From: Cyanophyceae cyanobacterium
Lineage (GTDB): Bacteria; Cyanobacteriota; Cyanobacteriia; Cyanobacteriales; JBHJGN01
Assembly: GCA_050331735.1 (NCBI GenBank)
Contig: JBHJGN010000029.1
Location: forward strand, 128,001-192,000
Length of the DNA: 64,000 nt
Reading direction: 5' to 3'
Shown here one piece after another: positions 18,025 to 60,980 of the stretch. The notes under the pieces are model-generated. The model made no database searches and was not told where the DNA came from. It was given only the letters and a program-made list of their open reading frames with translations. Each line of letters begins with the position of its first letter. Positions within the stretch are counted from its first letter, which is position 1. Made by a program: the position numbers and the translations under genes.

Positions 18025-18148
18025 AGGGGAATATTGCTGCGCGATGGGGAAAGGGGAAACTGTCCCTCTGGGACGGGGAAGGGGGAAAGGGAAAGAGGAG
18101 AGTTTGTTCCTTTCTCCCTTTCCCTTTTCCCTGCGCCTGCGGCGCTTT
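18025..18148. repeat. Inverted G-rich/C-rich short-repeat tract with 3 micro-hairpins
   Basis: GGGGAAA-type units followed by TTTCCCT-type units; hairpins at 18033-45, 18062-74 and 18133-45. Confidence 0.8.
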
Positions 18149-18150
18149 GT

Positions 18151-19035
18151 CTAGGCAGAAAATAGCTTCGCAATAGCGGCTTTCGGGTCTGGCTGTTTCA
18201 CTAAAGATTCGCCAATCAGGACAGCATCGGCTCCTGCCAGTCTGACTTGTTCTAAATCGTTATACTGATGCAGACCTGATTCACTAACAATAGTAATTTT
18301 TCGCTCTTTGATGGCTTGGGAACGGTGCTCAAGCAACTGGCACGTCGTTTGTAAATCAACCGAAAAGTCTTCTAAGTTTCGATTGTTGATGCCAATTACG
18401 GTGACATCCTTGAGCGACAGAACCCGATCTAACTCCTCAAGTGTGTGGACCTCGAGCAGCGGTGTCATCCCGATGGCGCGGGTAATTTTGATGAAATATT
18501 GCAGGTCGCTGTCGCTTAAAATGGCCGCAATGAACAAGACTGCATCGGCTCCTTTGGCGCGAGCCATATAAATCTGGTAAGGATAAATAATGAACTCTTT
18601 GCAAAGCAGCGGTAAATCTACCGCTCCGCGTACTAAAGCAAGGTTATCAAAACTGCCAGCAAAGAATTTGGCATCTGTCAGCACTGACAAGCAGCTTGCT
18701 CCACCCTGTTCATAGGCTTGAGCAATCTGTACTGGATTAAAGTTCTCGCAAATAATGCCTCTACTGGGAGAGGCTTTTTTGACTTCGGCAATCAGGGCAG
18801 GTTGCGTCTTTCCCTGTCGCAGGGCCGCCACAAAATCGCGGGCGGGGCCAACCTCTCGCACCTGCTTCTGCAACTCAAGGAGAGACAGGCGCGATCGCAT
18901 TTGCTCGACTTCTTTTTCTTTGTGCCAAACAATCTCTTCTAAAATATGGCGCGGCTGGGCACCCGGGAGATTGACCTGATAGCGTAGGATACTAATATCG
19001 ACGGGAGGATTGGGCTGTCTTCTTCTAATCTGCAT
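18151..19035 (-). CDS. trpC: Indole-3-glycerol phosphate synthase
   Basis: [30 protein letters not shown] and LIGESL motifs. Confidence 0.96.
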
Positions 19036-19058
19036 GGATTCATGACGTGAGTGAGGGT

Positions 19059-20480
19059 CTAAGCAGCGACTTCGGCTCGCTTGTAGGCTTCATCGAGAAC
19101 TTCAGAAAGGGTGGGGTGGGTGTGGACGGTAAAGGCAAGGTTTTGCACCGTTTGCCGCTGGGCGATCGCGTTGGCTGCCTCCTGAATCAGGTCGGCGGCG
19201 TGCATACCGATAATATGTACGCCGAGAACTTCCCCGGTATCTTGCCGATACACAACCTTGGCTAAGCCATCGGTTTCCCCTTCTGCCAGGGCTTTGGAGT
19301 TGCCTTTAAAGTACGTCTTCACCGAGGCTACTGGAAATCCTTCCTGGTCTCCGAGTTCCTTGGCGGCGGGTTCTGTGTAGCCCACGTAGCTAATTTCTGG
19401 ATGGGTAAAGGCCGCAGCGGGAATAGAGCGGTAGTCTACGATATGCTCGCGTCCGCAGATGTTTTCTACCGCAACGATTCCCTGACCAGAAGCCGCATGA
19501 GCTAGCATCATCTTTCCCGTCGCATCGCCCACTGCCCACAGGTGAGGCACTGGCTGACCGTCCCGCAGCACCGCCATCTGGTCATCGACCGGAATAAAGC
19601 CACGGCGGTCGGTTTCGACCCCTAACGTTTCTAATCCGAGGTTCTTGGTAGCGGGAATGCGACCTGTCGCCACCAGACAGGCATCGACTTCTAAGACCTC
19701 ATTCACTTCCTTCGTTTTCGGATCGGCGAGTTCAATGACGACCGGAGAACCTGGCTTGACGGTTTTGGCAATTTTGCCCACGCGGGTTTCAATGTCGCGG
19801 GTGGCAATCAGGACTCGTTGAGCAATTTTGGCGATTTCTGGGTCGAAACCAGGCATGAGAGTATCGAGAGCCTCAATCATGGTAATCTCGCATCCCAGGG
19901 CTGTATACACGTCGGAGAATTCTAATCCAATATAGCCACTGCCGATAATGGCAATCCAGTCAGGAAGAGACTCTAGCTTGATCGCGTCATCGCTGGTAAA
20001 CACGGTTTTGCCGTCAAGTTCAATTCCTGGAGGCACAAACGGCACTGAACCAGGACAGAGCAGAATATCTTGAGCGGTAATTGTTCTTTCTCCGTTCTCG
20101 GTTTGAACGGTTACTTTCTGCGGTCCTGAGACTTTTCCCCAGCCCCGAATGGTATCAACTTTGAGGCGCTTAAGGCTGTTGGTGAGATCGCCCCGAATTT
20201 TGCTGACTAAGTTAAGAGCATGGTCGGCGATCGCCTGTCGTTCAAACTGTACTCCGTCAACCTGAATGCCCAGTTCCTGGAGGTGTTCGCTGCCCAACTC
20301 CCTGACCCTTCCTGAAGCGGCGAGAAGGGCTTTAGACGGAATGCAGCCTCGATTAACGCAGGTTCCTCCCATGTCCTGGGCTTCGATAATGGCCGTTTTC
20401 AAACCGCACTTAACGGCGTGTAGGGCTGCACCATGCCCGCCAACGCCAGCCCCAATAATGACTAAATCGTAATCGAACAT
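19059..20480 (-). CDS. lpdA: Dihydrolipoamide dehydrogenase
   Basis: [19 protein letters not shown] redox disulfide and HTHPTLSE motifs. Confidence 0.96.
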
Positions 20481-20564
20481 CTATCTTAAAGTCCGTAATC
20501 ATTCCTCTCTTTATCGTAATCGATGCGATCGCTCTCTTTTGAGAGATGCTGAGCATTGATAAGA

Positions 20565-21359
20565 CTACTCCCCCTGACCCCGAATCAGAGAGCGCTGTCG
20601 CCTCGCTTCGTACAGCAAGAGGGCGGCGGCGATCGCTACGTTTAACGACTCGACTCCATTACGAAGGGGAATTTGAACCTGTCGATCGGCTAGAGTGACT
20701 AACTCCCTCGATAAACCCGCTCCTTCGTTGCCCAGTAAAATTAAGGTTGGTACGCTCCAGTCAAGTTCCCAATAGGCTTGAGTCGCTTGAGGACGAGTCG
20801 CCACGATTTGTGTTCCCTGCTGTTGATAGTGGACTACGGTGGCGGCCAAATTGTCACTGTGGGCGATCGGGGCTTGGAACCAAGACCCGGCTGATGCTCT
20901 CATTACTTTAGGATTGTGCAGCTCTACGCTATCTTGGCTCAGCCAGAGGCGATCAGTGCTAGTGGCCACTGCCGTCCGTAAAATGGTTCCTAAATTTCCC
21001 GGATCTTGGAGCCTTTCCAGCATTAGACCGAGGCTAAGGTCTGACGATGCGAGGAGCGTTCTGGGAGGGATGGTAGCGACCACTCCATCCGGATTGACGG
21101 TTGTTGCTAGCTTAGCTAAGACTTCCGGGGAGACGAGTTCGGTTCGGGCTGCTTTTTGGGAGACGGTTTGCCACAGGCAAGGCTGGCGTTCCTGCCATTG
21201 AGGAGTACAGCACACCGTTACTAAGGAATGATTGGCATCGCAAGCAGCCTGAAGCAGATGCGTTCCTTCCAATAAGTACAGGTTTTGTTCGCGCCTCGCT
21301 TTGGCACGATGCAGCTTCCGCATCTGCTTAATCAAAGGATTTTGCAGACTGGTCAACAT
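20565..21359 (-). CDS. TrmH/SpoU family RNA methyltransferase
   Basis: QDPGNLGTILRT, LGNEGAG and ESLNVAIA motifs. Confidence 0.93.
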   Translation of the reverse strand: MLTSLQNPLIKQMRKLHRAKARREQNLYLLEGTHLLQAACDANHSLVTVCCTPQWQERQPCLWQTVSQKAARTELVSPEVLAKLATTVNPDGVVATIPPRTLLASSDLSLGLMLERLQDPGNLGTILRTAVATSTDRLWLSQDSVELHNPKVMRASAGSWFQAPIAHSDNLAATVVHYQQQGTQIVATRPQATQAYWELDWSVPTLILLGNEGAGLSRELVTLADRQVQIPLRNGVESLNVAIAAALLLYEARRQRSLIRGQGE

Positions 21360-21387
21360 AGAGCCGTGAGTAAGCTTTTCAAGTTAA

Positions 21388-21471
21388 TGCGGAACCCGGG
21401 ACTTGAACCCGGAAGTCCTTGCAGACACTAGAACCTGAATCTAGCGCGTCTACCAATTCCGCCAGTTCCGC
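21388..21471 (-). tRNA. tRNA-Leu(CAG)
   Basis: GCGGAAC acceptor stem, D-loop GGAATTGGTAGAC, anticodon arm CTAGA-TTCAGGT-TCTAG, long variable arm, GGTTCAAGTCC T-loop; CCA not encoded. Confidence 0.96.
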
Positions 21472-21630
21472 ACAATTTTATTCGCGATCTATTATTTTTT
21501 CAAAGACAGAGCAGATTGTCAAGCAATTAGTCCTGTTATGCTGAGCAAAAAATATTTCTGGATTCAAGCAACCCTAAGTCTTACTTTCGGGTAGAATCAA
21601 ACCAAATTTTGTCACTAGGAGGGCACGGCC

Positions 21631-22986
21631 ATTACTTCTCCATCTTTAAAGACCTTAACTGAATCGCCCCAGCACCCGCCAGTTTTAAAAATCGGCGGGC
21701 AAGCCTCTTTACAGGGTCACGTTCAGATCAGCGGCGCCAAAAATTCTGCCTTGGCGATTATGGCAGGAGCTTTACTTTGCCCAGATGACTGCCGCATTCG
21801 CAATCTGCCGGAGCTTGTTGATTTGACCCGGATGGGCCAAGTGTTAGCAGCACTTGGAATCAACATTAAACGACACGGCGATATTTTAGATGTCAATGCC
21901 AGCACGATTGGTCAACATCGCGCTCCTTACGAACTTGTTTCTCAGCTACGAGCGAGCTTTTTCATTATTGGTCCCCTCATTGCTCGGTTAGGTATTGCTG
22001 AGATTCCTCTTCCCGGTGGATGCGCCATTGGAGCGAGACCCGTTGACATTCACGTGCGCGGCCTGCAGGCTCTCGGGGCAGACGTGCGGATCGAGCACGG
22101 CATTGTTCATGCCTGCGTAAATCAGCGTCGCGGACGCTTACAGGGGACAAAAATTTATCTAGATTATCCGAGCGTTGGTGCAACGGAAACCATCATGATG
22201 GCCGCAACTCTCGCTGACGGGGAAACCACCATCGAAAATGCTGCTCAAGAACCAGAAGTGAGCGATTTGGCTAACTTCTGTCGCGCGATGGGAGCCAACA
22301 TCAAGGGCTCTGGAACCAACACAATTACAATTTCTGGGGTAGAGCGTCTGCATGCGGTGGATTACTCGGTGATTCCCGACCGGATTGAAGCCGGAACCTT
22401 TCTAGTCGCTGGAGCCATGACCCATTCCGAGCTGACGCTGGCGCCGGTGATTCCGGATCATCTTACCGCCGTCATTGCTAAACTCCGCGAAATCGGGGCT
22501 CACGTTATCGTCGAAGAGCCGCGCTGCCTGCGGATTGTGCCGGGCGAGAACCGCGCCACCGACATCGAGACCCTCCCTTTTCCGGGTTTTCCCACCGATA
22601 TGCAGGCGCAGTTTATGGCCCTGCTTGCCCTGGCCGAGGGAAACAGCATGATTAGCGAAACGGTGTTTGAAAATCGCCTGCGTCATGTTGCCGAACTCAA
22701 TCGCATGGGCGCCGATATCCGCATTAAAGGGAACCACGCTATTGTGCGAGGAGTCCCCTTTTTATCGGGAGCGCCAGTCATGGCCACTGACTTACGAGCC
22801 TCCGCCGCCCTCGTGCTGGCTGGTTTAGCCGCTCGCGGTGAAACCATCGTGCAGGGACTTCATCATCTCGATCGCGGGTACGACAACTTAGAAAACAAGC
22901 TCCGTCAGCTTGGGGCTCGCCTAGAGCGTGTTGGAGCAGCGACAGCGGCAGTTCCGATGCCAGATAAAACTGACATTAAGATTTAA
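21631..22986 (+). CDS. murA: UDP-N-acetylglucosamine 1-carboxyvinyltransferase (probable ATT start)
   Basis: [29 protein letters not shown] and FPTDMQ motifs. The conserved ISGAKNS lies upstream of the ORF-track TTG at 21751, so the start is extended to ATT 21631. Confidence 0.93.
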
Positions 22987-23217
22987 TCCCTCTGAACCTA
23001 GACTAGCTGTGATTAGCTGTCTCCTTGTGCTCTTGACCACACTTAGCCTTTGCTCTTCCACACACTCTGCTCTGGTTGATAGCGTTTACTCATCCCGTTA
23101 TTGAGGATAGCTGCTACACAAACTAGAGAGCTGACTCCCTGACTCCTCACCTCGATTTGAAATCGGTTTCACTTCTGGTGAACCCGTTCGATGCTCATTG
23201 ATCGGCGCTCGAAACAG

Positions 23218-23814: not shown

Positions 23815-24070
23815 TGGACTTGCCGGTTAGCGATTTACTTCATCGTAGTGCGATTAGGCAGTCAAAATTTGAAATTTACCTTGAGACGAACCACTGAGAA
23901 ATCAGGGATTTAAGCTCAGGACTGCTAGGAAAGCTGGTTCCTGCTTGAATGTCTAACTTTGAATTGTGCCTCTCCAAGCGGTTTTCAGTTGAAGCAGAAG
24001 CCTTGAATGGATTAAAAGCGTGTCAATAGGGCAGTCCCCGTGTTAACCTATCACCATTAATTGCTGAACT

Positions 24071-24084
24071 AATACGCTTGTACC
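24071..24084. promoter_or_regulatory. LexA-like box upstream of smc
   Basis: AATACGCTTGTACC, 35 bp before the ATG; same variant as 15124-15137. Confidence 0.4.
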
Positions 24085-24119
24085 GATCTGACTTGCTATT
24101 GCCTCTCTAGCCAGCGCCT

Positions 24120-27100
24120 ATGGTTCATATTAAGCGCGTGGAACTTTCACACTTTAAATCTTTTGGCGGTACAGCTCGGATTCCGATACTGCCCGGATTT
24201 ACCGTCGTCTCGGGGCCTAATGGTTCAGGAAAATCAAACATTCTTGATGCACTGCTGTTTTGCCTCGGACTCGCTACCTCTAGAGGAATGCGGGCAGAAC
24301 GGCTTCCCGATTTGGTCAATCATAATCGCACGAACGGTCGCCGCGCCGCCGAAACGACCGTCTCTGTTACCTTCGCTCTTTCTGACGGCTTGGAGACCGA
24401 GCCATTCGCCGAGTCAGATGATTCCTCCAATGGTCACAACGGCAGTAAAATAGCCTCAGAATGGACCGTGACCCGTCGCCTGCGTGTCGGTCAAGGCGGC
24501 AATTACTCCTCCACCTACTACATCAACGGAGCCGTCTGTACCGCGAGCGAACTCCACGAACAGCTTAGCCGTCTGCGCATCTATCCTGAAGGCTATAACG
24601 TTGTGCTACAGGGGGACGTAACCCGCATTATCACGATGAATTCGCGGGAGAGGCGAGAAATTATCGACGAACTGGCGGGAGTCGCAGAATTCGATCGCCG
24701 GATCGAGCAGGCCAAGCAGACCCTCGAAGACGTGCGCGAACGGGAAGACCGGTGCCGCATCCTCGAGCAAGAGCTGATTAAGTCCCGCGATCGCTTGGCG
24801 GCTGACCGCGTGAAGGCGGAGAAATATCACAAGCTCAAAGGCAAAATTCAGGAACAGCAGCAGCAGGAAAAGCTCCTGATTTGGCACTCGCTGCATCAGC
24901 AGGAACGCCAGCTCCAGGGGCAGATGACCGCCCGAGAGCAGCAGCTCGCGCAGCTCACCCAACAGCTCAGCGCGCTAGACACCGACATTAACCAAGCCAC
25001 GGCTCAGCTCGCCGAACTGAACCGCCGCGTTAAAGCCCTCGGAGAAGACGAACAGCTATCGGTGGCCTCAAAGCTAGCCACTCAAAAAGCCAAGCATCAG
25101 CAGCTTGAGCAGCGCCAGCAGGAGCGACAAACCCTAGCGCAGCAGAATCAAGAGGCGATCGCCCGCACTCAAGGAGAGCTAGCCCACTATCACCACTCTT
25201 TGTCAGCCCTCGAGCAACGCCAGTCCCACCTCCAGGCCACTCTCCCCACCACCGCCCAACGGCGCGAGCAAGCCCAGGCTACCCTGCAAACGAGCCGGGA
25301 ACAGGCCGATGCGATCGCTGCGGCTTCCGACGCCTGGATTCAGGAACAAGCCGCCCTCAGCCGCCAGATCGCCACTCTCCAGAAGACCCTGAATCCTCTT
25401 CAGAATGAACAGGCACAGTTACAAGAGCGCACCAGTCAGCGACAAAATCAGCTCACAGAACAGTATCAGCTTCAACAAATTAATCAGCAGGAACGAGAGG
25501 CGAACAGAGCTGAGAGCACGGCATTATCTGAGAGACTCGCCGCGTTTGAGCAACAGATCCAGCTCCTCGCCCATCAACTCGCCACTGCCGAACAAGAATG
25601 CACCATTAGCCAGGAAACTCAGACTCGTCTGCTGCGAGAACAGCGAGAGAAACAGCGCCAGCTCGATAAGCTAGAGGCGACGAAAGAGGCTCAGCAGGAC
25701 GCCCAGGGCACCACCGCCACCAGAACGATTCTCCAGGCCAACCTACCCGGAGTGTGTGGCTTGGTCGCTCAGCTCGGACAGGTTGAGCCTCGCTATCAGT
25801 TAGCGCTGGAAACCGCCGCTGGCGGCAGACTGGGATTTATCGTGGTCGAAGACGACCAGGTGGCGGCAGCGGGGATTGAGCTGCTCAGGCAGCGACGAGC
25901 CGGACGAGCGACGTTTCTCCCGCTCAACAAAATTCAGCCGCCGCGCTTTAACGAGACAGTCGTGCTGCGGTACGCCAGGGGCTTTGTTGATTTAGCGGTC
26001 AATCTGATCGATGCGCCCCTCCAGTATCGGAAAATCTTTGCCTACGTTTTCGGCGGGACGGTCGTGTTTGAAACGATCGATGAGGCTCGTCCTTATTTAG
26101 GCAAACAGCGGATCGTAACGATGGCAGGGGATTTGCTAGAGAGTAGCGGAGCGATGACTGGAGGCAGCCGCCCTCTGCGCTCAGCGCTGCATTTTGGCAC
26201 AGCGACCCCCACAGACTCAGAAGAATTAGAGAGTCTGCGGCATCGCTTAGCGGAAATTGACCGGATTTTGGAGCGCAATGAACGCTACCTAGCACAAAAA
26301 AACACCGCTACCAGACGATTAGCCCAGGAACTCACGGACAGCAGACAGCAGGGACGAGAGCAGCAGCTTAGACGAGAACAGTTAGACCAAGAAGAAGCAC
26401 GATTAACGGCGCAGCAGGCTCAGCTTGCGGCCCAGGTTGAACGGAGTCGGGAAGAACTTCGGCAGGCCGAGCAGCGACTCCAGGACTTAGCCACCCAAAT
26501 CCCGCTGATGGAAGCGCAGCTTCAGCAAAATCAGCAGCGCTTGAGCGAGCTAGAGGCCTCGGGAACCTCCAGCGAGTGGCAACAGCTTCAGGTGCTCATT
26601 AAAGAGCAAGAAGCCGAACTACAGCAGCAGGAACGGGCGTATCGGGAAGTAGAGGAACAGCTTAAAGATGTCGCCAATCAGCAGCAGCGCCTCGTCGAAA
26701 AAATCACCGAAGCGGAGCAGCGCCTTGCCGCAGACCAGAATCGAGCGTCAGCCCTGAACCAACAGCAGCTAGAGGTAATGCAGGAACGGGCCAGTCTGGG
26801 GGAGCGTATTGCCGCCACGGAAGAGGAGTTAGCTCGCCTGTCAGAACGCCTCGGGGAAACAAAACAAGAGCGCGATCACACCGAAGCGAATCTGCGATCG
26901 CACCAGCATCAGCAGCAACAGCAGGCTTGGCAGCAGCAAAAACTGATAGAAACGCAACAGTCGCAGCAAGCCGAGTTGGCGGAACTGCGCGAAGAGATTG
27001 CGCGCCAAAGGTTAGAACTGCCGGAGCCTCTTCCCGAACCGGCGATCGCAGACCCGGATGCTGACCTCACGACTCCACTCGGCCAGCTCCAGCAGGAACT

Positions 27101-27716
27101 CCGCAGCGCCCAGAAGCGCCTAGAAGCCATGGAGCCTGTCAATATGCTGGCGCTCGAGGAATACGAACAGATGCAGGCCCGACTCGAGGAGCTATCGGCA
27201 AAACTAGCTACCCTAGAAGCCGAACGCACAGAAATCTTACTCAGAGTGGAAAACTTTACCACCCTCCGCCTTCAGGAGTTCAAAAAAGCCTTTGACGCGG
27301 TCAACGAGAACTTCCAATCTATTTTTGCCACCCTCTCTGATGGCGACGGCTATCTCCAGCTCGAAGATACTGCCGATCCGTTTAGCGGCGGGTTAAATCT
27401 AGTCGCGCATCCGAAAGGTAAACCCGTACAGCGATTAAGTTCGATGTCTGGAGGAGAAAAATCCTTAACCGCCTTGAGCTTTATCTTTGCCCTCCAGCGC
27501 TATCGTCCCTCGCCTTTTTACGCCTTTGACGAGGTAGATATGTTCTTAGACGGAGCGAACGTAGAACGATTGTCCAAAATGATCAAACACCAGGCTCAGC
27601 AGGCTCAATTCATTGTCGTCAGTCTGCGCCGTCCAATGATCGAAGCCGCCCAGCGCACCATCGGCGTGACCCAAGCCAGAGGAGCCTACACTCAAGTATT
27701 GGGGATCAAGCTATGA
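24120..27716 (+). CDS. smc: Chromosome segregation protein SMC
   Basis: FKSF, GPNGSGKSN Walker A, hinge GRATFLPL, MSGGEKS signature, DEVD Walker B; long coiled coils. Confidence 0.97.
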   Translation: MVHIKRVELSHFKSFGGTARIPILPGFTVVSGPNGSGKSNILDALLFCLGLATSRGMRAERLPDLVNHNRTNGRRAAETTVSVTFALSDGLETEPFAESDDSSNGHNGSKIASEWTVTRRLRVGQGGNYSSTYYINGAVCTASELHEQLSRLRIYPEGYNVVLQGDVTRIITMNSRERREIIDELAGVAEFDRRIEQAKQTLEDVREREDRCRILEQELIKSRDRLAADRVKAEKYHKLKGKIQEQQQQEKLLIWHSLHQQERQLQGQMTAREQQLAQLTQQLSALDTDINQATAQLAELNRRVKALGEDEQLSVASKLATQKAKHQQLEQRQQERQTLAQQNQEAIARTQGELAHYHHSLSALEQRQSHLQATLPTTAQRREQAQATLQTSREQADAIAAASDAWIQEQAALSRQIATLQKTLNPLQNEQAQLQERTSQRQNQLTEQYQLQQINQQEREANRAESTALSERLAAFEQQIQLLAHQLATAEQECTISQETQTRLLREQREKQRQLDKLEATKEAQQDAQGTTATRTILQANLPGVCGLVAQLGQVEPRYQLALETAAGGRLGFIVVEDDQVAAAGIELLRQRRAGRATFLPLNKIQPPRFNETVVLRYARGFVDLAVNLIDAPLQYRKIFAYVFGGTVVFETIDEARPYLGKQRIVTMAGDLLESSGAMTGGSRPLRSALHFGTATPTDSEELESLRHRLAEIDRILERNERYLAQKNTATRRLAQELTDSRQQGREQQLRREQLDQEEARLTAQQAQLAAQVERSREELRQAEQRLQDLATQIPLMEAQLQQNQQRLSELEASGTSSEWQQLQVLIKEQEAELQQQERAYREVEEQLKDVANQQQRLVEKITEAEQRLAADQNRASALNQQQLEVMQERASLGERIAATEEELARLSERLGETKQERDHTEANLRSHQHQQQQQAWQQQKLIETQQSQQAELAELREEIARQRLELPEPLPEPAIADPDADLTTPLGQLQQELRSAQKRLEAMEPVNMLALEEYEQMQARLEELSAKLATLEAERTEILLRVENFTTLRLQEFKKAFDAVNENFQSIFATLSDGDGYLQLEDTADPFSGGLNLVAHPKGKPVQRLSSMSGGEKSLTALSFIFALQRYRPSPFYAFDEVDMFLDGANVERLSKMIKHQAQQAQFIVVSLRRPMIEAAQRTIGVTQARGAYTQVLGIKL

Positions 27717-27730
27717 GCAGCGAAGCTGCT

Positions 27731-27930
27731 GGGGAAAAGGGGTAAGCCGCTTTTGCGGCGGGAAAAGGGCAAAGGGGAAGGGGTAAGCCGCTTTTGCGGC
27801 GGGAAAAGGGCAAAGGGGAAGGGGAAAAGGGAGGACTGATACCCAGTTCCTTAGACCCTGCGTTTTTCCCCGTCCCAACCGGGACCATTTCCCCTTTCCC
27901 CCTTCCCCCTTCCCCGTCCCAACCGGGACA
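27731..27930. repeat. Inverted G-rich/C-rich tract with a 41-bp tandem duplication and 4 micro-hairpins
   Basis: GCCGC-TTTT-GCGGC twice (27746, 27787) and GTCCC-AACC-GGGAC twice (27872, 27916); fills the gap between convergent smc and ruvA. Confidence 0.85.
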
Positions 27931-27932
27931 GA

Positions 27933-28565
27933 TCATTCCCCGTCGCTGAGCCAGGTAATCGCACTCTTAATCCAGTCTTCGACGTGGGGGTTTTTGAGCA
28001 ACAGGTTGTCTTTGCTGAGGGCGGACATGGCCTGTTCAATTTCTTCAGTGGTATAGCCGAGAGCTAGCAGAGTCATTTCCACATCTTCTAAAATGGCGGC
28101 GTTGGGCGCGGCTAAAGACCTTGACGCAGTGACTCCCGCATCCTGTCGCCACTGAGAGAGCTTCGTTTTGAGTTCTAAAGACATGCGCTCTGCGGTTTTT
28201 TTGCCGACCCCCGGTGTTTTAGAGAGAGCTCGAATATTCGTTGTCACGATCGCCTGCACTAAATCTGTGAGTCCGAGGGTATCGATCAAGGCGATCGCCA
28301 ACTGAGTGCCAATTCCGCTAACGCTGATGAGCTGACGAAATAAATCTCGTTCGGCGGCGGACGCAAACCCGTAGAGAATCTGCTGATCCTCTCGGATCTG
28401 TAGGTGAGTAAAAATCTGTGTTGTTGCTTCTAGATCATTAAAAGAACGGGCTAGGCGCGAAGGAATCTGTATCTCATAGCCGACGGAGTTGACCTCCAGA
28501 ATGAGCAAGACGCGATTGGTGCTTTTAATGACCTCAACTACCTGACCCTTAAGGTAGCTAATCAT
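27933..28565 (-). CDS. ruvA: Holliday junction branch migration protein RuvA
   Basis: MISYLKG, VGYEI, IRED..LYGF, HhH motifs VSGIG and PGVGKKTAER. Confidence 0.96.
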   Translation of the reverse strand: MISYLKGQVVEVIKSTNRVLLILEVNSVGYEIQIPSRLARSFNDLEATTQIFTHLQIREDQQILYGFASAAERDLFRQLISVSGIGTQLAIALIDTLGLTDLVQAIVTTNIRALSKTPGVGKKTAERMSLELKTKLSQWRQDAGVTASRSLAAPNAAILEDVEMTLLALGYTTEEIEQAMSALSKDNLLLKNPHVEDWIKSAITWLSDGE

Positions 28566-34379: not shown

Positions 34380-34528
34380 TACCAATTAGAAAAAGTCATG
34401 AGAGACTTGAGCCGTTGGGGAAAAGGGGAAAGGGTCAGGGGGAAAGGTAAACACAGCCAGCCTTTCCCTTTTAAGAGCCAACTCTTTGTTAGTGAGGAGA
34501 ACTATCTCACTCCTTTCGGTCAATGGTA
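34380..34528 (+). mobile_element. 149-bp MITE with TGA target duplication
   Basis: tga-TACCAATTAG...CAATGGTA-tga. Removing the element plus one TGA restores GAA CTC ATT GCT in the host gene. Confidence 0.92.
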
Positions 34529-34672: not shown

Positions 34673-34821
34673 TACCAATTAGAAAAAGTCATAGGAGACT
34701 TGATGAGTTGGGGGAAAGGGGAAGGGGTCAAGGGGAAAGGGAAGCACAGCAGCTCTTTGCCCTTGAACCTCCAATGCTTAGTTAGTTTAAGGAACTATCT
34801 GACTACTTTCGGTTAATGGTA
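34673..34821 (+). mobile_element. 149-bp MITE with TAA target duplication
   Basis: taa-TACCAATTAG...TAATGGTA-taa. Confidence 0.92.
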
Positions 34822-37306: not shown

Positions 37307-37454
37307 TACCAATTAGAAAAAGTAATAGGAGACTTGATGAATTGGGGGAAAGGGGAAGGGGTCAAGGGGAAAGGGAAGCACAGCAGCTCTTTGCCCTTGA
37401 ACCTCCAATTGTTGGTTGGTTTGGGCACTATCTGACTACTTTCGGTAAATGGTG
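37307..37454 (+). mobile_element. 148-bp MITE with TTA target duplication
   Basis: tta-TACCAATTAG...AAATGGTG-tta; body nearly identical to 34673-34821. Confidence 0.92.
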
Positions 37455-40218: not shown

Positions 40219-41040
40219 ATGCCAGAAGGACCAGAAATTAAACGAGCTGCCGATGCGATCGCCTCTGCCCTCGTTGAACGACCGGTTGTGGAACTCTTTT
40301 TTGCCTTTGAGCGGCTGAAGCTTTATGAGCAGAAGCTTGCCGGAACAACGGTAACAACGGTACAGCCGCGAGGAAAAGCAATGCTGATTCGCTTTGACAA
40401 CGAACTGAGTATCTACAGCCACAATCAGCTTTACGGTCAGTGGATTGTTCGCAACGCTTATTCTTATCCGGAGACTAATCGCCAATTACGTCTGGCGATT
40501 CACAATTCCCAAAAATCAGCGCTCCTCTACAGTGCTTCGGATATTGAGGTGCTTAACGACGATGATATTGCCATGCACCCTTTCCTAAGCAAGCTTGGTC
40601 CCGATGTTCTCGCGCCATCAACAACAGTAGAACAGGTCGAGCAACGCCTGCAAGACCAGCGCTTTGCTCGCCGACAGTTCACTTCTTTGCTTTTAGATCA
40701 GCATTTCTTGAGCGGATTGGGAAACTACCTGCGCAGCGAAATCCTGTTTGTGGCAAGAATTCATCCCACTCAACGACCGATAGATTGTCTGCCTAAGCTC
40801 CCTCGCCTAGCGGCGGCAAGTCTTTCTGTTTCTCGGCAATCCTACGAGACAGGAGGGATTACCAACGATCTCGAACAAGCGCGTCGGCTCAAGGAGCAAG
40901 GAGTTAAACGGGCCGAGTATCGTCACTGGGTTTTCAACCGCGCAGAGCGTCCGTGCTTTGCTTGTGACACTAAAATAGTCAAGGCGGTGTCGGGAGGACG
41001 GCGCTATTACTACTGTCCCTACTGTCAGTCAAAGACTTAA
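40219..41040 (+). CDS. nei: Endonuclease VIII (Fpg/Nei DNA glycosylase)
   Basis: MPEGPE N-terminus, RGKAML, YSHNQLYG, LLDQ..SGLGNYLRSE, C-terminal Cys zinc finger. Confidence 0.93.
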   Translation: MPEGPEIKRAADAIASALVERPVVELFFAFERLKLYEQKLAGTTVTTVQPRGKAMLIRFDNELSIYSHNQLYGQWIVRNAYSYPETNRQLRLAIHNSQKSALLYSASDIEVLNDDDIAMHPFLSKLGPDVLAPSTTVEQVEQRLQDQRFARRQFTSLLLDQHFLSGLGNYLRSEILFVARIHPTQRPIDCLPKLPRLAAASLSVSRQSYETGGITNDLEQARRLKEQGVKRAEYRHWVFNRAERPCFACDTKIVKAVSGGRRYYYCPYCQSKT

Positions 41041-51782: not shown

Positions 51783-51792
51783 GATTGACTCC

Positions 51793-53781: not shown

Positions 53782-53889
53782 TTCCGGCAGGCTAGTTAGG
53801 GACAGACGAGATCAATTATGCCCCAGTCTTTCTCGAACGACATCATAAACCGCGCAAAAACCTAGCTCGTGACCCAGCTTAGCTCAATT

Positions 53890-54165
53890 TGGGAAAAGGG
53901 TAAGGGGGAAAGGGTCAGAACTTTTCGCTGCCTTAACAAGACTCTGTACTGAATGCCAGCACAAGTATTAAGTACGCCTCGTTAGGCTACGAGGGGGTTG
54001 CCGACAGCAAAGCTGTCAGAGCCAAAAATAAAACTCGCCCCAGAAACTCTCGACTTTAGAGAGTAGAAGCGAGTTAACAATCGGGAAAGTCTTCAGCAGA
54101 GAACAATTGACGAGAAAAGACGATTAACGCTCTCCCTTTTCCCCTGACCCTTTTCCCTTTCCCCG
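53890..54165. repeat. G-rich and C-rich arms enclosing several hairpins
   Basis: GGGAAAAGGGTAAGGGGGAAAGGGTCA (53891) and TCCCTTTTCCCCTGACCCTTTTCCC (~54135); internal stems near 53978, 54003 and 54032. Confidence 0.6.
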
Positions 54166-54177
54166 TCTCAGAGCGGC

Positions 54178-55398: not shown

Positions 55399-55573
55399 GG
55401 CTTTTCTCCTATCTTTATCCACGAGCTACGCAGAGCATCGTATCACGCTCTTCTGACGCAATCGGCTCTAGACAGGGGAAGATGCCCAAAGTTGAAATAG
55501 AGTTTAACAAACTAGTCAATAAAGCTTAACAGTGAGCAGTTACCAAATTAAGCCGCTGGTCACTGCTCACTGA

Positions 55574-55903
55574 CTAGACTGGCGGGAGTCCCTTCATCTG
55601 GCGAATAGCGTTCACGCAGGCGATACAGTCGCAGCCGAAGAGGGCGATCGCTGCATCACTTTCTGCTTCACTAAACTCCAGCATCGGAGCGTCTTCTGAA
55701 AAGTGACGGGGCGCTTGTAGCGAGTTTGGCTGCGATCGCGTACAGGTTAAGTTACCCATGCCAGTCGAACTGCATGCTGAAGTCGGGGCTTCAAACGTTA
55801 ATTCTTGCGAATGAGCGGGCGCTGTAACGAGGGTAGAAATAATCGGTGCTAAAAATACGGGGAAAGTCAGCAGGTTGAGGAAAATTTTGTTGGTACGTAT
55901 CAT
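55574..55903 (-). CDS. Small exported protein with C-terminal CxCxxC motif
   Basis: Signal-peptide-like N-terminus (APAHS) and ESDAAIALFGCDCIACVNAIRQ. Confidence 0.75.
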   Translation of the reverse strand: MIRTNKIFLNLLTFPVFLAPIISTLVTAPAHSQELTFEAPTSACSSTGMGNLTCTRSQPNSLQAPRHFSEDAPMLEFSEAESDAAIALFGCDCIACVNAIRQMKGLPPV

Positions 55904-56610
55904 AAGCGATCGTCCTTAATACAGGGCAGCATTGCGCAGCAGCATAGCGGCATTTGAATATTAGCATTCAAATTAGCGACCTTAACTGAGCTGCTCGACA
56001 CGATTATACTGATCAGAGCACAAATGCGTAATCCTTTGCCATTTTTTTCTTGGATATGGATGAGAAAATTCTGACGGTGGAATTTCTTGATAGTTTAAGG
56101 AGAGAATTCACCAAATTTTATAACTAGTCAAGCTAGACAACCTGAGTCGGGGTAAGAATAGCGGTGGTTAAAACCACTGCTACACAAACAAAACCTGCTG
56201 GCGCAGATCTCTTAAATCGGCATGAAAATTCGGATTGAGTAGATTGCATTTGGAGTAGGGAAGATTCAGATACAGAAGCGATGCTAAATACCACGCCTTT
56301 AACAGTTGATTTCACCAAAGAAGAGTCAGTTTTATAGAGCTTGCCAAAATCACCACAATCAAGTCAGCCAGTGGCATGGAACACAGTTTACTTTGGGCAT
56401 CACCGTCAGCCTAGTCATGAAACACCTTAATACTCTTCTCCCCAACACTCTCTTAGCATTGATCTTGGACGCGCGACCGCGGTAGAAAGATGGTGAGGAA
56501 GTGGATGCTTTAAGAGGAAAACTGTCAGACACGTAGACACCACAATTTATGCGGCCAATGTTCCTCAAAAGCAACGCTGGGATAGAGAAGGTGAATTCAT
56601 TTTAGAATAG

Positions 56611-57273
56611 CTAGGCAAGCAAATCTTGGATAATCTGCCGACGTTTCTCCTGGCGATTTTGGCTCTGAACTTTGACCCTTGCTACCACTTCAGCCGGAGC
56701 GGTGTGAGGAGAACCAGACTGGAATGGGGGAGCCGGATTGTATTCCATCGCTAGCTGAATTTCTTGGGCGATCGCTTCGTCAAATAATTCGGCAGCGATC
56801 GCTAAACCAAAGTCAATCCCTGCCGTCACTCCCCCACCTGTAATTCGGTTGCGGTCAATTACAACTCGTTCTGCTACGGTCTCTACCCCAAACATCTCTA
56901 GGAGTTCAAGCGACTGCCAGTGGGTGGTGGCGCGATACCCTTGCAGCAATCCTGCTGCTGCCAGTAATAGTGAACCGGTGCAGACCGAGGTCACGTATTG
57001 GGCTTGGTCACCGAGAGTTTTTAAACACCGCAGGAATGAGCGATCTTCTAGCTTGAGATTGACTCCCCCTCCTCCTGGAACAAACAGCACATTTAGAGCT
57101 AGATTTTGGGCCAGCGTCGCGTTGGGGAAAAAAGCCATGTTCCCGCTCTGAACTGGTTCGAGAGTTTCTGCCAATAGGTAGAGCCGTGTATCGGGTAACC
57201 GGGTAAAAACTTCGTAGGGACTCGTCAGATCTAACTGCGTGAGGTTGGGAAACACAACCATGCCAATCTTCAT
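56611..57273 (-). CDS. DJ-1/PfpI family protein (isonitrile hydratase-like)
   Basis: TQLDLTSP, VPGG, SVCTGS, ATTHW, GGVTAGID and EYNPAPPF motifs. Confidence 0.9.
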   Translation of the reverse strand: MKIGMVVFPNLTQLDLTSPYEVFTRLPDTRLYLLAETLEPVQSGNMAFFPNATLAQNLALNVLFVPGGGGVNLKLEDRSFLRCLKTLGDQAQYVTSVCTGSLLLAAAGLLQGYRATTHWQSLELLEMFGVETVAERVVIDRNRITGGGVTAGIDFGLAIAAELFDEAIAQEIQLAMEYNPAPPFQSGSPHTAPAEVVARVKVQSQNRQEKRRQIIQDLLA

Positions 57274-57279
57274 GCTGCT

Positions 57280-57759
57280 CTAAGCGGCTCTCCGCTTTGT
57301 AAAACCGTGTCTTTGGGGAACTCCTTGAGAAATAATCTGATGCAGGAGCGGAATTTTGGCACTATTATAGACCCGAAACTCGCTCTCGACGGTAGCTGCT
57401 GCGGTACGCACTGCCTGGTTAATCACGAGGGAACCATCGGGATCGGAGACGGAGCGATGAAAAGTACCGGGAGGAATCCGCAGTATATCGCTGTTAGCTT
57501 CTAAGCGCACAACGTGATAGGGATATTCCCACGAAAGATTAACTAGATAAAAGGTTCTACCTCCTGAAAGCGCCAGCAGGTTATCTTCCTGACGAGGGTG
57601 GAGATAAAACTGCCAGTTGCCGCTTGCGCTATTGTAAGGACTAACTGCCGGACCATCGTGAAAGACCAGATCGCGGGCATTAGAATGGGGAATTGTAATG
57701 TCAAAAAAGCGAACGTTCGGGGTATCTCGGAATTTGTGATAGGTAAGTAATTCAAACAC
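57280..57759 (-). CDS. Cupin-like conserved protein
   Basis: FYLHPRQEDNL and IPPGTFHRS resemble the two cupin motifs. Confidence 0.75.
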   Translation of the reverse strand: MFELLTYHKFRDTPNVRFFDITIPHSNARDLVFHDGPAVSPYNSASGNWQFYLHPRQEDNLLALSGGRTFYLVNLSWEYPYHVVRLEANSDILRIPPGTFHRSVSDPDGSLVINQAVRTAAATVESEFRVYNSAKIPLLHQIISQGVPQRHGFTKRRAA

Positions 57760-57840
57760 AGCTCTTCACACCAAGGTCTAGGGTTCTTTTCTGTAGCCTA
57801 GCCTTTACATTTTTTAACGTCAAAACTGATCGAGAATCTT

Positions 57841-57863
57841 ATCTATGCACAAAGCGGATAGAT
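57841..57863. promoter_or_regulatory. Probable LysR recognition site
   Basis: Perfect ATCTAT-N11-ATAGAT dyad containing T-N11-A, in the divergent intergenic region. Confidence 0.6.
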
Positions 57864-57881
57864 CAACCTTGCTAAGGACAG

Positions 57882-58757
57882 ATGAACCTTTATCAGCTCA
57901 AGATTTTGCTAGTTGTTGCCGAGACAGGGAATTTTTCCGTAGCGGCGCTCAAGCTCAACGTATCTCAATCCTCAGTGAGTCGAGCGATCGCCTCTTTAGA
58001 AGAAGAACTGGGAGTGCCGCTGTTTTCGCGAGGACGGTTTGGGGCTCGTCTGACGCTGGTGGGCGAGAAAATTGTCGTTCACGCTCGTCGCATTTTAGAG
58101 ATTCGAGAAAGCATCGAGCAAGAGGTAAATCTCGAAAAAGGTTTACACCGAGGACGGGTCCGAGTGGCTTCGTTTCGCAGTGCCGCCACTCACTTACTGC
58201 CGCCGACGATCGCGCGCTTTAGTCGGCAGTTTCCTAACGTTGAAGTGACTCTCACAGAGCGAGATCCACTCGGAGTCGAGCAGGCTTTGCGAGACGGAGA
58301 AGCCGACATTGGTTTGCTGCCGTTACCTCGTTCGGAAGAATTTGACACGTGGGAAATTGCCAGAGACGAGTATGTTGTGCTGTTGCCTCCAACGGCGGGG
58401 ATCGTTTCCCCTTTGACTTGGAAGCAGCTCTCTTCCTACTCGTTTATTTTGTTTAACTACGCAGAATGTACCTCAGCGGTGCGGGAACACTGGGCTAGTT
58501 GGGGACAAAGCTTAGAAGTTGCCCACGCCATTAAAGAAGATTCCACGATTGTCAGTATGGTGGCTCAAGGGCTAGGCGCAGCCATTCTTCCTCGTTTAGC
58601 CGCACTACCGATTCCTGAAAGCATTCAGGTTGAGTCTTTACCCGTTCCCCTAGAAAGAGTCATCGGTGCGGCTATTCTAGCTAATTCCCTGCAAACAACC
58701 GCTACCTTTGCTTTTCTAGATGTTTTAAGAGGCACAGGGGTGTTTGCGGACAAATAA
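57882..58757 (+). CDS. LysR family transcriptional regulator
   Basis: NFSVAALKLNVSQSSVSRAIASLEEELGVPLF HTH followed by a substrate-binding domain. Confidence 0.95.
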   Translation: MNLYQLKILLVVAETGNFSVAALKLNVSQSSVSRAIASLEEELGVPLFSRGRFGARLTLVGEKIVVHARRILEIRESIEQEVNLEKGLHRGRVRVASFRSAATHLLPPTIARFSRQFPNVEVTLTERDPLGVEQALRDGEADIGLLPLPRSEEFDTWEIARDEYVVLLPPTAGIVSPLTWKQLSSYSFILFNYAECTSAVREHWASWGQSLEVAHAIKEDSTIVSMVAQGLGAAILPRLAALPIPESIQVESLPVPLERVIGAAILANSLQTTATFAFLDVLRGTGVFADK

Positions 58758-58807
58758 TCAGTGATCGCTAATGAGGAATTCAGTCCGATTTCTGTCTCTC
58801 TACACCG

Positions 58808-59092
58808 TCACGCTGCACTTGACCAGCCCTGCACTTTCTGCCCAATTTTAAAAATAACCGAGCTTCCTAAACCTAACTGCTGAGCGACAGCAAGAAGCGT
58901 TGCTATCTGTTTCTGAGTGGTTGCTATTGAGTGAGGGCAAGCTTCAAAATTGAGACACAGGACAGTAGAGCAGCCCCACGGTTCCCGAAACACTCGACAA
59001 GCCTGGGGAAGACAGTTTGTTAAAGAGCGAAATCGGTTCATGGCTGCTTTTTCAAAGTCTGTGCTTGTACTCTTTAATGATTGATTCGCCAT
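58808..59092 (-). CDS. Small conserved cyanobacterial hypothetical protein
   Basis: 94 aa with a CRVFREPWGCSTVLCLNF motif. Confidence 0.7.
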   Translation of the reverse strand: MANQSLKSTSTDFEKAAMNRFRSLTNCLPQACRVFREPWGCSTVLCLNFEACPHSIATTQKQIATLLAVAQQLGLGSSVIFKIGQKVQGWSSAA

Positions 59093-59211
59093 AATTTTTC
59101 TCCGCTAGTCAGCAACGCTTCGCTTGAACTCTTTCATCTGTAACACAGCAGCGTAGAACAATTTGTACTTTACGCTGCTATTTTAGCCTACCCGCCAGCA
59201 CCCTCATGGGC

Positions 59212-59844
59212 TTAGCGGCCTAGAGCGTACATCTGATTAATCACATCAGCACAGTGCTGAGTGACCTTCGCTAACTCTTCCCGCTTCGTCGAGGGCGGTG
59301 GGGCGATCGCCTTGCCGATACGCACCGTCACCGAGACCGGTCGCGGGAAGGTTCCTTGCAAAATTCCTTCGGTTCCCCACAGGCTCAACGGCACTAGCGG
59401 GACTTTGGCTTTGGCCGCAATCATCGCCGCTCCTAATTTTGGCTCGATAATCCGTGCGTCTGACGTTCGCTGTCCAGTTAAAAATAGCCCCACGGCCCAC
59501 CCTTGCTGAAGCTTGGTCATGGCGGCGCGAATGGCGCTGCGGTCTGCGGTTTGCCGCTTCACGGGATAGGCGCCGTACAGATGAATCGCTTGCCTGAGAA
59601 CAGGAACGGTAAACAGTTCTGCTTTCGCCATAAAAGCCACCGGACGACGAACACAGCAGGACACAATCGGTGGATCGAAGTAGCTAGCATGATTACTCAC
59701 GATCACGACTGGACCGGTTTGGGGCACATTTTCTGGTCCATGAATCCGTCCCCGAAAGTAAGCATGCAGCATGGGGCTGACCACTGACCACTTAAATAAG
59801 TGATACAAAACCAAGCTAGCGACAGGTTCTCTTTCGGCATCCAC
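59212..59844 (-). CDS. plsC: 1-acyl-sn-glycerol-3-phosphate acyltransferase
   Basis: SNHASYFD (HxxxxD) and FMAKAELF motifs. Confidence 0.9.
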   Translation of the reverse strand: MDAEREPVASLVLYHLFKWSVVSPMLHAYFRGRIHGPENVPQTGPVVIVSNHASYFDPPIVSCCVRRPVAFMAKAELFTVPVLRQAIHLYGAYPVKRQTADRSAIRAAMTKLQQGWAVGLFLTGQRTSDARIIEPKLGAAMIAAKAKVPLVPLSLWGTEGILQGTFPRPVSVTVRIGKAIAPPPSTKREELAKVTQHCADVINQMYALGR

Positions 59845-59924
59845 TAGAAATCGTCAGTCAAATGATTGGAAAGCGTTTAGCGCTTAGCGTTTTACTGTAG
59901 CTGATGAATGAAAAACAGCATCGC

Positions 59925-60800
59925 TTAGAGGCTAGACAAGCTAGTAAAATCGCTGATATTCTTCAACTCTAGCTCTTTACAGGTTCTTTTAAGTAAGCCC
60001 GTGAGGACTTTACCTGGACCAACTTCAATTGCCTGGGAGACTTCCTCCTCAGAGAGCTTGAGCATAATTTCTCGCCAGCGGACTGTTCCAGTCATCTGCT
60101 GGACGAGGCGCTCTTTCAGTTCTACTCCCGACTGCGTTGGCTGAGGATCGACATTAGAGAGTACCGGAATCTTCGCATCCGCAAAGGCCACGGTCTGCAA
60201 CATTGCTGCAAACTGCTGAGCCGGGGTAGCCATCCCGGCAGAATGAAAAGCACCAGAAACGTTGAGCAGCACGGCTCGCTTGGCTTTTACCTGAGTCATC
60301 GCCTTCTCCACCGCTTCAGGCGTACCGGAAATCACGATCTGCTCAGCACTGTTATCGTTAGCAACAGCCACATCAGCCTCTGCGAGTACTTGATGAAGCT
60401 GCTCCCGATCGAATTTCATCAGTGCTGCCATCCGGCCTCCCGCCGCTGCATCCATCAATTCCGCTCTTCTCTTGACTAAATCAAGGCCCGTTTCAAACTC
60501 CAATACTCCAGCGACCGTTAAAGCGACATACTCGCCCAAGCTATGACCTGCCACTACATCAGGACAATGCCCCTGCTGCCTCAGTAAGTCAGCTAAGATG
60601 TTTTCCAGCACGTAGAGACAAGGCTGAGTATACAGCGTTCGATTTACCTGTTCTTGCTGACAGAGCTCAAGCACTGACCACCCTAAGATTGCTTCCGCTT
60701 GAGAAAATTTAGCTCGTGCTTCCGGAAGTGCGGCTAAATCCGCTTCCATCCCCACAGACTGAGAACCTTGTCCGGGAAATACCCATGCAGTTTTAGTCAT
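59925..60800 (-). CDS. fabD: Malonyl-CoA:ACP transacylase
   Basis: VFPGQGSQ, GHSLGEY, VSGAFHS and EVGPGKVL motifs. ATG at 60800; the ORF-track extension runs through repeat DNA. Confidence 0.95.
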   Translation of the reverse strand: MTKTAWVFPGQGSQSVGMEADLAALPEARAKFSQAEAILGWSVLELCQQEQVNRTLYTQPCLYVLENILADLLRQQGHCPDVVAGHSLGEYVALTVAGVLEFETGLDLVKRRAELMDAAAGGRMAALMKFDREQLHQVLAEADVAVANDNSAEQIVISGTPEAVEKAMTQVKAKRAVLLNVSGAFHSAGMATPAQQFAAMLQTVAFADAKIPVLSNVDPQPTQSGVELKERLVQQMTGTVRWREIMLKLSEEEVSQAIEVGPGKVLTGLLKRTCKELELKNISDFTSLSSL

Positions 60801-60820
60801 AATCGAAGTCACTCTGTAAT

Positions 60821-60980
60821 GACAGCGCCACAGGCGCAGGAAAAGCCGCTGTCGCGGTGGGAAAAAGGAAAGCGCCACAGGCGCGGGGAAAGGGGGAAAT
60901 CAATCAGCGGCTCTCTCAATCCTAGGGTCTTTTCCCGTCGCCAAGCGACAGTTTCCCCTTTCCCCGTCCCGCTAGGGACA
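60821..60980. repeat. Inverted G-rich/C-rich tract with 5 micro-hairpins
   Basis: Hairpins at 60825-37, 60845-58, 60872-84, 60937-49 and 60966-79. Confidence 0.85.

Follow-up and report, generated by a model that had tools for sequence, protein, structure and literature searches.

The 64,000-nucleotide (nt) stretch analyzed here, hereafter the window, comprises positions 128,001 to 192,000 of contig JBHJGN010000029.1 of a Cyanophyceae cyanobacterium, and three of its intergenic regions (window positions 18025–18148, 27717–27931 and 60821–60980) contain G-rich and C-rich tracts studded with very short hairpins. They represent copies of a single composite repeat that is intergenic, palindromic and non-coding. 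Its host is a cyanobacterium rich in the highly iterated palindrome HIP1 (GCGATCGC sites, n = 4855), with a genome of 5.57 Mb in 99 contigs, assembled from a short-read metagenome. In all three loci a G-rich arm is followed by a C-rich arm. The original prediction had listed twelve hairpins in three such inverted tracts, and a scan of the window, in which a 5-base-pair (bp) stem with a 3–4 nt loop closed by C-G had to be followed by RGGRA, recovered every one of them in the stated loci. Read on the G-rich strand, all twelve have the predicted stem, loop and closing pair and are directly followed by RGGRAA; pairing is perfect Watson-Crick in 10 of the 12, and the remaining two (18033–18045 and 60845–60858) include one G·T wobble.

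Copy 1 (18025–18148) lies between the stop codon of trpC, the indole-3-glycerol-phosphate synthase (IGPS) gene (18151–19035, minus strand), and a DUF5340 gene (17510–17791, minus strand), and consists of a G-rich arm, a shortened center and a C-rich arm. The G-rich arm bears ATTGC-tgc-GCGAT (18033–18045, plus), with four Watson-Crick pairs and one T·G and followed by GGGGAA, and GTCCC-tct-GGGAC (18062–18074, plus), a hairpin of class 1 as defined below, with the linker CT before it and GGGGAA after it. On the other arm the class 2 hairpin GCGCC-gca-GGCGC (18133–18145, minus, read on the G-rich strand) ends 5 nt from the trpC stop codon. The shortened center (18085–18118, minus) scores 34 against the family center on the minus strand versus 26 on the other; it appears to be inverted relative to the arm classes, and its loop could have been flipped through recombination between the inverted arms.

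Copy 2 (27717–27931) occupies the entire spacer between the convergent genes smc (24120–27716, plus) and ruvA (27933–28565, minus). Directly 3' of the smc stop codon the scan revealed an additional, thirteenth hairpin, GCAGC-gaa-GCTGC (27717–27729, plus). Beyond it lies an exact tandem duplication of a 41-nt module (27739–27820, plus; units 27739–27779 and 27780–27820), each unit of which is made of heptamers and one GCCGC-tttt-GCGGC hairpin (27746–27759 and 27787–27800, plus). A diverged family center with its adjoining tracts (27799–27874, minus) shares 82% identity over 78 nt with a canonical copy on contig C1, and the C-rich arm holds two class 1 hairpins of the sequence GTCCC-ggtt-GGGAC (27872–27885 and 27916–27929, both minus). 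The outer of these adjoins the end of ruvA, whose last codons and stop codon (27933–27950) themselves fall in tract-like sequence at the element edge; the ruvA relatives examined end otherwise.

Copy 3 (60821–60980) is flanked on one side by the stop codon of a gene for a fatty-acid desaturase (60985–61821, minus) and on the other by the likely ATG, at 60800, of a fabD-like acyltransferase gene (59925–60800, minus). Two class 2 hairpins, GCGCC-aca-GGCGC (60825–60837 and 60872–60884, plus), stand on either side of GCCGC-tgtc-GCGGT (60845–60858, plus), whose outer pair is G·T. The family center (60887–60938, minus) was detected by a profile derived from the other copies with an E-value of 7.1e-07. 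It is followed by the class 1 hairpin GTCGC-ttg-GCGAC (60937–60949, minus), which lies on the AGAACACAG-side arm and thereby matches the family pattern, and by a terminal module with the class 1 hairpin GTCCC-tagc-GGGAC (60966–60979, minus), 6 nt from the desaturase stop codon. Five other short G-rich heptamer tracts occur in the window (14818–14852, 34417–34434, 34710–34744, 37344–37378 and 54148–54164); a scan of these for 4 or 5 pairs followed by RGGRA yielded no hairpin, and they may represent eroded arms.

Genome-wide, we clustered tracts from seeds consisting of runs of the form G3-6 A2-4, and observed that the G-arm precedes the C-arm in 78 of 78 mixed-strand clusters and the reverse order in none, a count that does not represent independent events because the copies share ancestry. 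The clusters share an asymmetric conserved center of about 45 nt containing AGAACACAG and AAGGAAYAAGCT. Iteration of a profile of this center on the genome with a cut-off of E < 0.01 detected 168 copies, the one at window 60887–60938 among them. Upon merging tracts, hairpins and centers, with both a tract and a hairpin needed for an element, we obtained 285 elements with a median length of 101 nt and a maximum of 256 nt, which carry 1–6 hairpins apiece and together hold 669 of the 935 hairpin loci formed by ten stem types.

The hairpins within these elements are strongly partitioned between the arms. The AGAACACAG-side arm has the stems GTCCC (78), GTCGC (45), GTTCC (39), GCGCC (10) and GTTGC (1), and the opposite arm has GCGCC (92), GTTGC (53), GCAGC (22), GTCGC (20) and GTCCC (4), counts to which the same dependence through common ancestry applies. 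Class 1 hairpins, with the stems GTCCC, GTCGC or GTTCC, are preceded by a 2-nt linker (TA, CT or TT) and have loops that are mostly T-N-C on the G-rich strand; class 2 hairpins have the stems GCGCC, GTTGC, GCAGC or GCCGC. When a copy is read in the orientation of its center, class 1 hairpins interrupt a G-rich arm of degenerate GGGGAAA-type heptamers, and class 2 hairpins sit on the C-rich arm that follows the center. On their 5' flank the hairpins have (A/T)A, on their 3' flank GGGG. The fixed register in the heptamers that had been predicted for them is seen in the gaps between successive hairpins of the same arm, which cluster at 9, 16 and 23 nt, matching 7k+2, and in the GGG that stands directly after the hairpin. 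Hairpins and tracts are rarely found apart: among the 702 hairpins of the five main stem types, 653 have a tract unit no more than 14 nt away and 49 lack one, and there are almost no long heptamer arrays free of hairpins, (GGGGAAA)x3 being present only 8 times and the units being degenerate. Neighboring hairpins have different stems in 172 of 223 cases, and identical pairs number 27. In two places (G000:C24 ~40530–40570 and C22 ~68280–68320) the module position is taken by longer, nested-looking hairpins, in which an outer stem of 5–7 bp encloses a CTTCC-nnn-GGAAG hairpin.

The association of hairpin and G-run far exceeds chance expectation. The genome has 20417 RGGRAA sites, and perfect 5-bp hairpins end exactly at such a site 608 times and one base earlier 376 times, with most other offsets accounting for about 25–60 each, with a 7-nt periodicity. 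Three simulated first-order Markov genomes of equal length contained 32, 23 and 31 such hairpins against the 608 real ones, and a reversed-pattern control had 0 matches in this genome. When 13–14 nt non-purine interruptions between tract units were collected by context only, 160 of 564 formed a perfect hairpin and 37 of 564 a hairpin with one mismatch, as against 14 perfect hairpins in 11280 shuffled interruptions. The stems have a polarity: 192 loci read GTCCC-loop-GGGAC, with RGGRAA immediately following at 158 of these, and only 3 read GGGAC-loop-GTCCC. For all ten stem types, RGGRAA lies at most one base away on exactly one side in 613 of the 935 loci, and many of the remaining hairpin loci adjoin slightly variant tract units. 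Identical hairpin 13-mers recur 28–45 times in the genome.

The 3' flank of the hairpins is a run of three to five Gs, and such G3-5 runs repeat every 7 nt. This arrangement would suit a model in which the G-rich arms fold as G-quadruplexes with the micro-hairpins in their loops (quadruplex-duplex hybrids) and the junction of hairpin and G-run is the conserved feature. Related G-rich heptamers form quadruplexes in vitro (PMC4692102). However, the usual presence of a complementary C-rich arm would cause duplex formation to compete with such folding, and the hairpins are equally regular on the C-rich arm, where that strand cannot form a quadruplex. Hence, we regard the quadruplex model as very improbable.

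To characterize how the elements are related, each of 164 elements of at least 80 nt was compared with its best partner. Best-partner identity has a median of 87% and a maximum of 97%, and the paralog alignments are colinear over 117–179 nt through hairpins, tracts and center, with 0–1 gaps in the best unrelated pairs. This colinearity indicates that the composite has been copied as a unit. Superimposed on it is a turnover of modules: among 291 pairs with an identity of at least 85%, the hairpin-bearing gaps measure 15–16 nt (4 gap sequences), 18–23 nt (9) or 27–32 nt (8), sizes that correspond to a hairpin alone, a hairpin with one heptamer and a hairpin with two heptamers. The numbers of hairpins on the two arms are uncorrelated in 143 elements (Spearman −0.03), as are the arm lengths (−0.10), and given this independent variation a symmetric branched structure is not supported.

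The original prediction had interpreted the hairpin as a structure-defined micro-element inserting at a fixed register in the heptamer repeats. In a fuller version of this reading the 13–14 nt hairpin, with a 2–3 nt linker, would itself be mobile, like the small dispersed repeats of Nostoc, and would enter, and perhaps leave, the G-rich heptamers at a fixed register, with the composites serving only as its preferred landing pads. Several observations are in line with it, namely the exact presence or absence of 15–16 nt in paralogs that are about 90% identical (for example, GTTGC-tcc-GCAAC plus linker), the fixed register with gaps of 7k+2 nt, the mosaic arms with their differing neighboring stems, the recurrence of identical 13-mers and the nested-looking longer hairpins of some copies. 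At least four paralog pairs differ by exactly one hairpin with its 2–3 nt linker, the tract units being intact; such single-unit differences fit independent insertion of a hairpin as well as its deletion. As the principal account the proposal is not supported, given the shared center, the colinear copies, the 49 of 702 hairpins that are free of tracts and the scarcity of empty arrays. Each stem class keeps to one side of the center, which would not be expected of a unit that reads only the local tract, and hairpins almost never occur away from tracts. The loops are the most diverged part of the hairpins at homologous positions (29.9%; see below), and the hairpins are therefore not recent arrivals from a master copy. 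Moreover, a hairpin between direct GGGRAA repeats is a classic substrate for slippage deletion, so that the differences may be losses, and 17 of the 21 hairpin-bearing gap sequences carry heptamers too. We consider such an autonomous micro-element doubtful. The same degree of doubt attaches to the view that the 15–16 nt unit is the smallest mobile DNA yet seen, defined by shape and inserted or removed by a structure-specific enzyme at the junction of an A-run and a G-run, with the composite as its accumulated product. Micro-mobility nevertheless survives as a minor possibility because several paralogs differ by one exact unit.

Divergence within the hairpins was counted at aligned positions of 136 best-partner paralog pairs. 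Sites differing between paralogs make up 4.2% of stem positions (95/2240), 29.9% of loop positions (215/718) and 10.7% of all other positions (1290/12100), figures in which the choice of best partners and the low complexity of the tracts partly inflate the low divergence outside the loops; best-partner choice cannot account for the sevenfold gap between stems and loops. Among 224 aligned hairpins the stem is identical in 169, changed but fully compensated in 29, and imperfect in 26 (19 of these with one difference). Full compensation is thus seen in 29 of the 55 stems that changed, flips from C:G to G:C among them, in agreement with the predicted covariation of stems in which shape is conserved over sequence. 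In hairpins with identical stems the loops have mostly undergone point changes, and in 3-nt loops the middle position differs in 71 of 138. Inversion of the loop was considered as a source of this variability and rejected, with reverse-complement loops in only 3 of 169 cases. Where a stem has a single mismatch it is, in G-rich-strand orientation, C·A in 13 cases, T·G in 7, G·T in 4 and A·C in 3; wobble-compatible pairs are not in excess on either strand. This lack of wobble bias leads us to read the constraint as acting at the DNA level, or as self-correction by template switching, rather than on one transcript.

The latter option deserves separate consideration. Quasipalindrome mutagenesis by template switching is a subject of work in Escherichia coli, and the covariation could be a mutational by-product of this kind, with intramolecular template switching correcting near-palindromes to perfect ones. 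The 29 compensated stems against 19 with single-site differences, the flips of C:G to G:C, which cannot pass through a wobble pair, and the preference for perfect Watson-Crick pairing without wobble bias on either strand all speak for such a process. It leaves unexplained, however, why the hairpins exist and are tied at fixed register to G-runs, as well as the strict 5'-G...C polarity of the stems and the T-N-C preference of the loops. It is a mechanism of maintenance only and is compatible with every other reading of the repeat; as the source of the covariation we deem it possible, although on the unlikely side.

The elements show a distinct preference for the 3' ends of genes. Gene context was assigned with a crude longest-ORF (open reading frame) heuristic, whose 4182 ORFs take up 82% of the genome. 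By this set, 162 of the 168 centers lie outside ORFs and 6 within them; of the former, 57 are in convergent, 94 in tandem and 10 in divergent spacers, and one is at a contig edge. As the genome has 758 convergent, 2573 tandem and 752 divergent spacers, a center occupies 7.5%, 3.7% and 1.3% of them, respectively. The distance from the element edge to a flanking stop codon has a median of 12.5 nt and is at most 10 nt in 47% and at most 30 nt in 70%; a quarter of the measured distances are zero or negative, i.e. the ORFs end at or inside the element.

This positioning invites the interpretation that the repeat is a functional signal under selection, acting as RNA or as DNA at the 3' ends of genes (perhaps a bidirectional terminator, a pause site or a protector of mRNA 3' ends), that its long stem of G-arm and C-arm with side hairpins is bound by a protein, and that it has spread through its usefulness. 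The descending occupancy from convergent to divergent spacers and the abutment on stop codons accord with it, as do the filling of the whole smc-ruvA spacer by copy 2 and the conservation of stems through compensatory changes. In the predicted RNA folds of the three loci the arms pair with each other and some of the micro-hairpins branch off at the side; these folds are more stable than those of shuffled sequences (z = −4.2, −4.6 and −2.8). The G-rich heptamer repeats of Xanthomonas and Nostoc likewise lie about 28 nt after ORFs (Rehm et al. 2015, PMC4692102). Against these stand several points. The combination of a hairpin and a U-run is not above the level of shuffles at the three loci, and none of these has an Rfam match at the gathering score, the only such matches in the window being a tRNA and a Cyano-1 RNA elsewhere. 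The orientation of the center relative to the upstream gene is unbiased (same in 53, opposite in 41), and at the corresponding genes the relatives lack the element. A selfish repeat would likewise end up in this position if insertions that disrupt promoters were selected against. The branched 3'-end structure that the original prediction had offered as its alternative agrees with the post-stop-codon position; what weakens it are the uncorrelated arm lengths and hairpin numbers, which leave no fixed branched shape, and mismatches that betray no RNA-type tolerance of G·U. On balance, we find a selected 3'-end signal unlikely.

The interpretation that we favor, and think probable with appreciable reservations, is that of a composite repeat resembling the repetitive extragenic palindromic sequences (REP), bacterial interspersed mosaic elements (BIME) and REP doublets forming hairpins (REPIN), which is copied as a unit, kept at gene 3' ends and remodeled by modules, and whose hairpins are maintained at the DNA level. 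The comparisons show that the composite is copied to new sites as a whole and that copies land or survive directly after stop codons. The arms then vary independently as modules are gained and lost (a hairpin by itself or joined to one or two heptamers), with some modules duplicated in exact tandem, and the 5-bp stems remain complementary while the loops drift. The constraint may reside in DNA hairpins or cruciforms, in which case a DNA-binding or mobilizing protein would need the hairpin beside a G-run; alternatively, template switching in near-palindromes would restore complementarity without selection. The family would be mainly selfish and tolerated at gene 3' ends, and as RNA its long G:C-rich stem could protect 3' ends.

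A number of points weigh against this interpretation. Neither the genome collection nor the metagenome contigs provide a close relative in which a single insertion event could be seen. The genome has 8 matches to the Y1-transposase family (PF01797), and none of them is flanked by tracts or hairpins; the co-occurring REP-associated tyrosine transposase (RAYT) or HUH nuclease that the original prediction had suggested looking for was therefore not encountered among these. Similarly, no recurrent transposase, or indeed any recurrent gene, is present among 468 flanking genes. Canonical terminators, comprising a hairpin and a T run, number 0, 1 and 1 at the three loci versus shuffle means of 0.9, 0.8 and 0.3. 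To these must be added the paralog pairs separated by exactly one hairpin unit, the shared ancestry of the copies from which the 78-to-0 polarity and the arm specificity are drawn, the partial inflation of the low divergence outside the loops and the heuristic gene calls on which the spacer-context counts rest.

With respect to mobilization, several of the PF01797 matches adjoin an apparent second transposon gene that remained unnamed in our searches. Target-site duplications were counted for k = 2–8 in 51 elements and equaled those of re-paired flanks, with the caveat that a 2-nt duplication may escape detection because the element ends are not sharply defined. No autonomous insertion sequence with the same ends was recovered in the genome, all matches to the center being short elements. 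A conserved sequence that follows the center in three copies, directly 3' of it and at the same point in each, was evaluated as a possible parent element. It proved to belong to a different intergenic repeat family, about 155 nt long and present well over 100 times in the genome, of which the window itself has a copy (74% identity) at ~12489–12649 (G000:C29:140489–140649).

Among the genomes searched, which were samples, the repeat is restricted to this lineage. The 30 nearest genomes all belong to other families of the same order; their smc genes have a DNA identity of about 75%, and no spacer is alignable. Relatives of ruvA in metagenome contigs reach at most 71% amino-acid identity, and in the seven nearest of these that were examined no tract follows ruvA; the hairpin pattern had 0 matches in 246 kb. 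As no close relative was found in either the genome collection or the metagenome contigs, there are no empty sites for comparison. A loose pattern of the unit has 438 matches in this genome versus 0–23 per genome in 400 sampled from the order, and a strict pattern has 318 versus 0–3 in each genome of a phylum-wide sample of 400, of which 25 contain a match at all. The loose-pattern matches in four other genomes, including the three richest, are mostly not hairpins, and one recurrent string among them resembles coding sequence. Same-order relatives carry plain G-rich heptamer arrays of the GGGTAAA or GGGAACA type without hairpins. True hairpins, GCCGC-aga-GCGGC followed by GGGGAA, were noted in 7 copies (e.g. 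C4:11508–11526) in G217, a genome from another family of the order; this is the only similar unit seen among the listed genomes.

Comparisons with known systems place the repeat with the small intergenic repeats of the REP/BIME type, the small dispersed repeats (SDR) and the short tandemly repeated repetitive sequences (STRR), as an apparently undescribed variant; full-text searches of the literature yielded no account of such a hairpin/G-tract element. The resemblance to the SDRs of Nostoc that the original prediction had remarked on is apt. SDR1–8 reportedly occur in Nostoc punctiforme and its relatives, often within tandem heptamers, and are said to be very short dispersed units of differing sequence that have one hairpin shape with compensatory changes, as is the case here. 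The unit here differs in that it measures 13–14 nt (15–16 nt with the linker) against a reported 21–27 nt, and in that its hairpins are arm-specific modules of a larger repeat with a conserved center. The host also belongs to a different family from the SDR hosts; according to PMC5861425, SDRs were not found beyond the Nostocaceae.

The likeness to the REP and BIME of enterobacteria and the REPIN of Pseudomonas (PMC3116915) lies in the inverted extragenic palindromes, the mosaics with short motifs, the hundreds of copies, the location after gene 3' ends and the lack of target-site duplication. REP palindromes have a GTAG or CGTC tetranucleotide at one end (PMC3733652). In contrast, the hairpins here are far shorter (5 bp), have neither a GTAG/CGTC tag nor a repeat-flanked Y1/RAYT gene, and are set in arms of degenerate heptamers. 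STRR of heterocystous cyanobacteria and GGGNATC-type heptamers (Rehm et al. 2015, PMC4692102) share the G-rich 7-nt periodicity and the intergenic location just downstream of ORFs; unlike them, the heptamer runs here are short, are interrupted by hairpins at a fixed register and form inverted arms around a center. The BOX elements of Streptococcus pneumoniae are modular and intergenic, with a varying number of internal modules and stable predicted folds. The modular build and varying module number recall the present repeat, which differs in its unrelated sequence, far smaller modules and heptamer arms. Finally, miniature inverted-repeat transposable elements (MITE) are comparable in being small, non-coding and high in copy number, with inverted arms and copying as a unit, but for this repeat neither a target-site duplication nor a parent insertion sequence with the same ends was found.

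REP, BIME, SDR and STRR are common and, to our knowledge, neither the copying mechanism nor the reason for the retention of the hairpins is known for most of them. The present family is an unusually clean case, with hundreds of copies in one genome, a background level in 800 sampled relatives and a modular build. Its stems evolve about seven times slower than its loops and do so in compensated pairs, and the absence of a wobble signature points to the DNA form as the selected one. This family should make it possible to tell three readings apart, namely that DNA structure is under selection, that palindromes correct themselves by mutagenesis and that the hairpins are truly mobile micro-units. 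There is also a practical warning for the assembly and annotation of such metagenome-derived genomes, in that the elements abut stop codons and tract-like sequence forms the end of ruvA.

The only public run containing the stretch is a stromatolite metagenome, which may be its source. The contigs of that run break inside the tracts, and therefore the module numbers per tract depend on this one assembly; the joints cross-match among paralogous tracts and offer no usable polymorphism. In the same run, contigs of minor variants have between about one quarter and one third of the depth (window 16376, 22893–22895, 27237–27290, 31139, 31837 and 34231), an indication that the sample may hold a second close strain; none of these contigs bridges a tract. 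The two Rfam matches in the window are unrelated to the hairpin repeat: a tRNA gene lies at 21388–21471 (minus) and the Cyano-1 RNA match at 3217–3286 (minus), the latter with 42.9 bits against a cut-off of 41.

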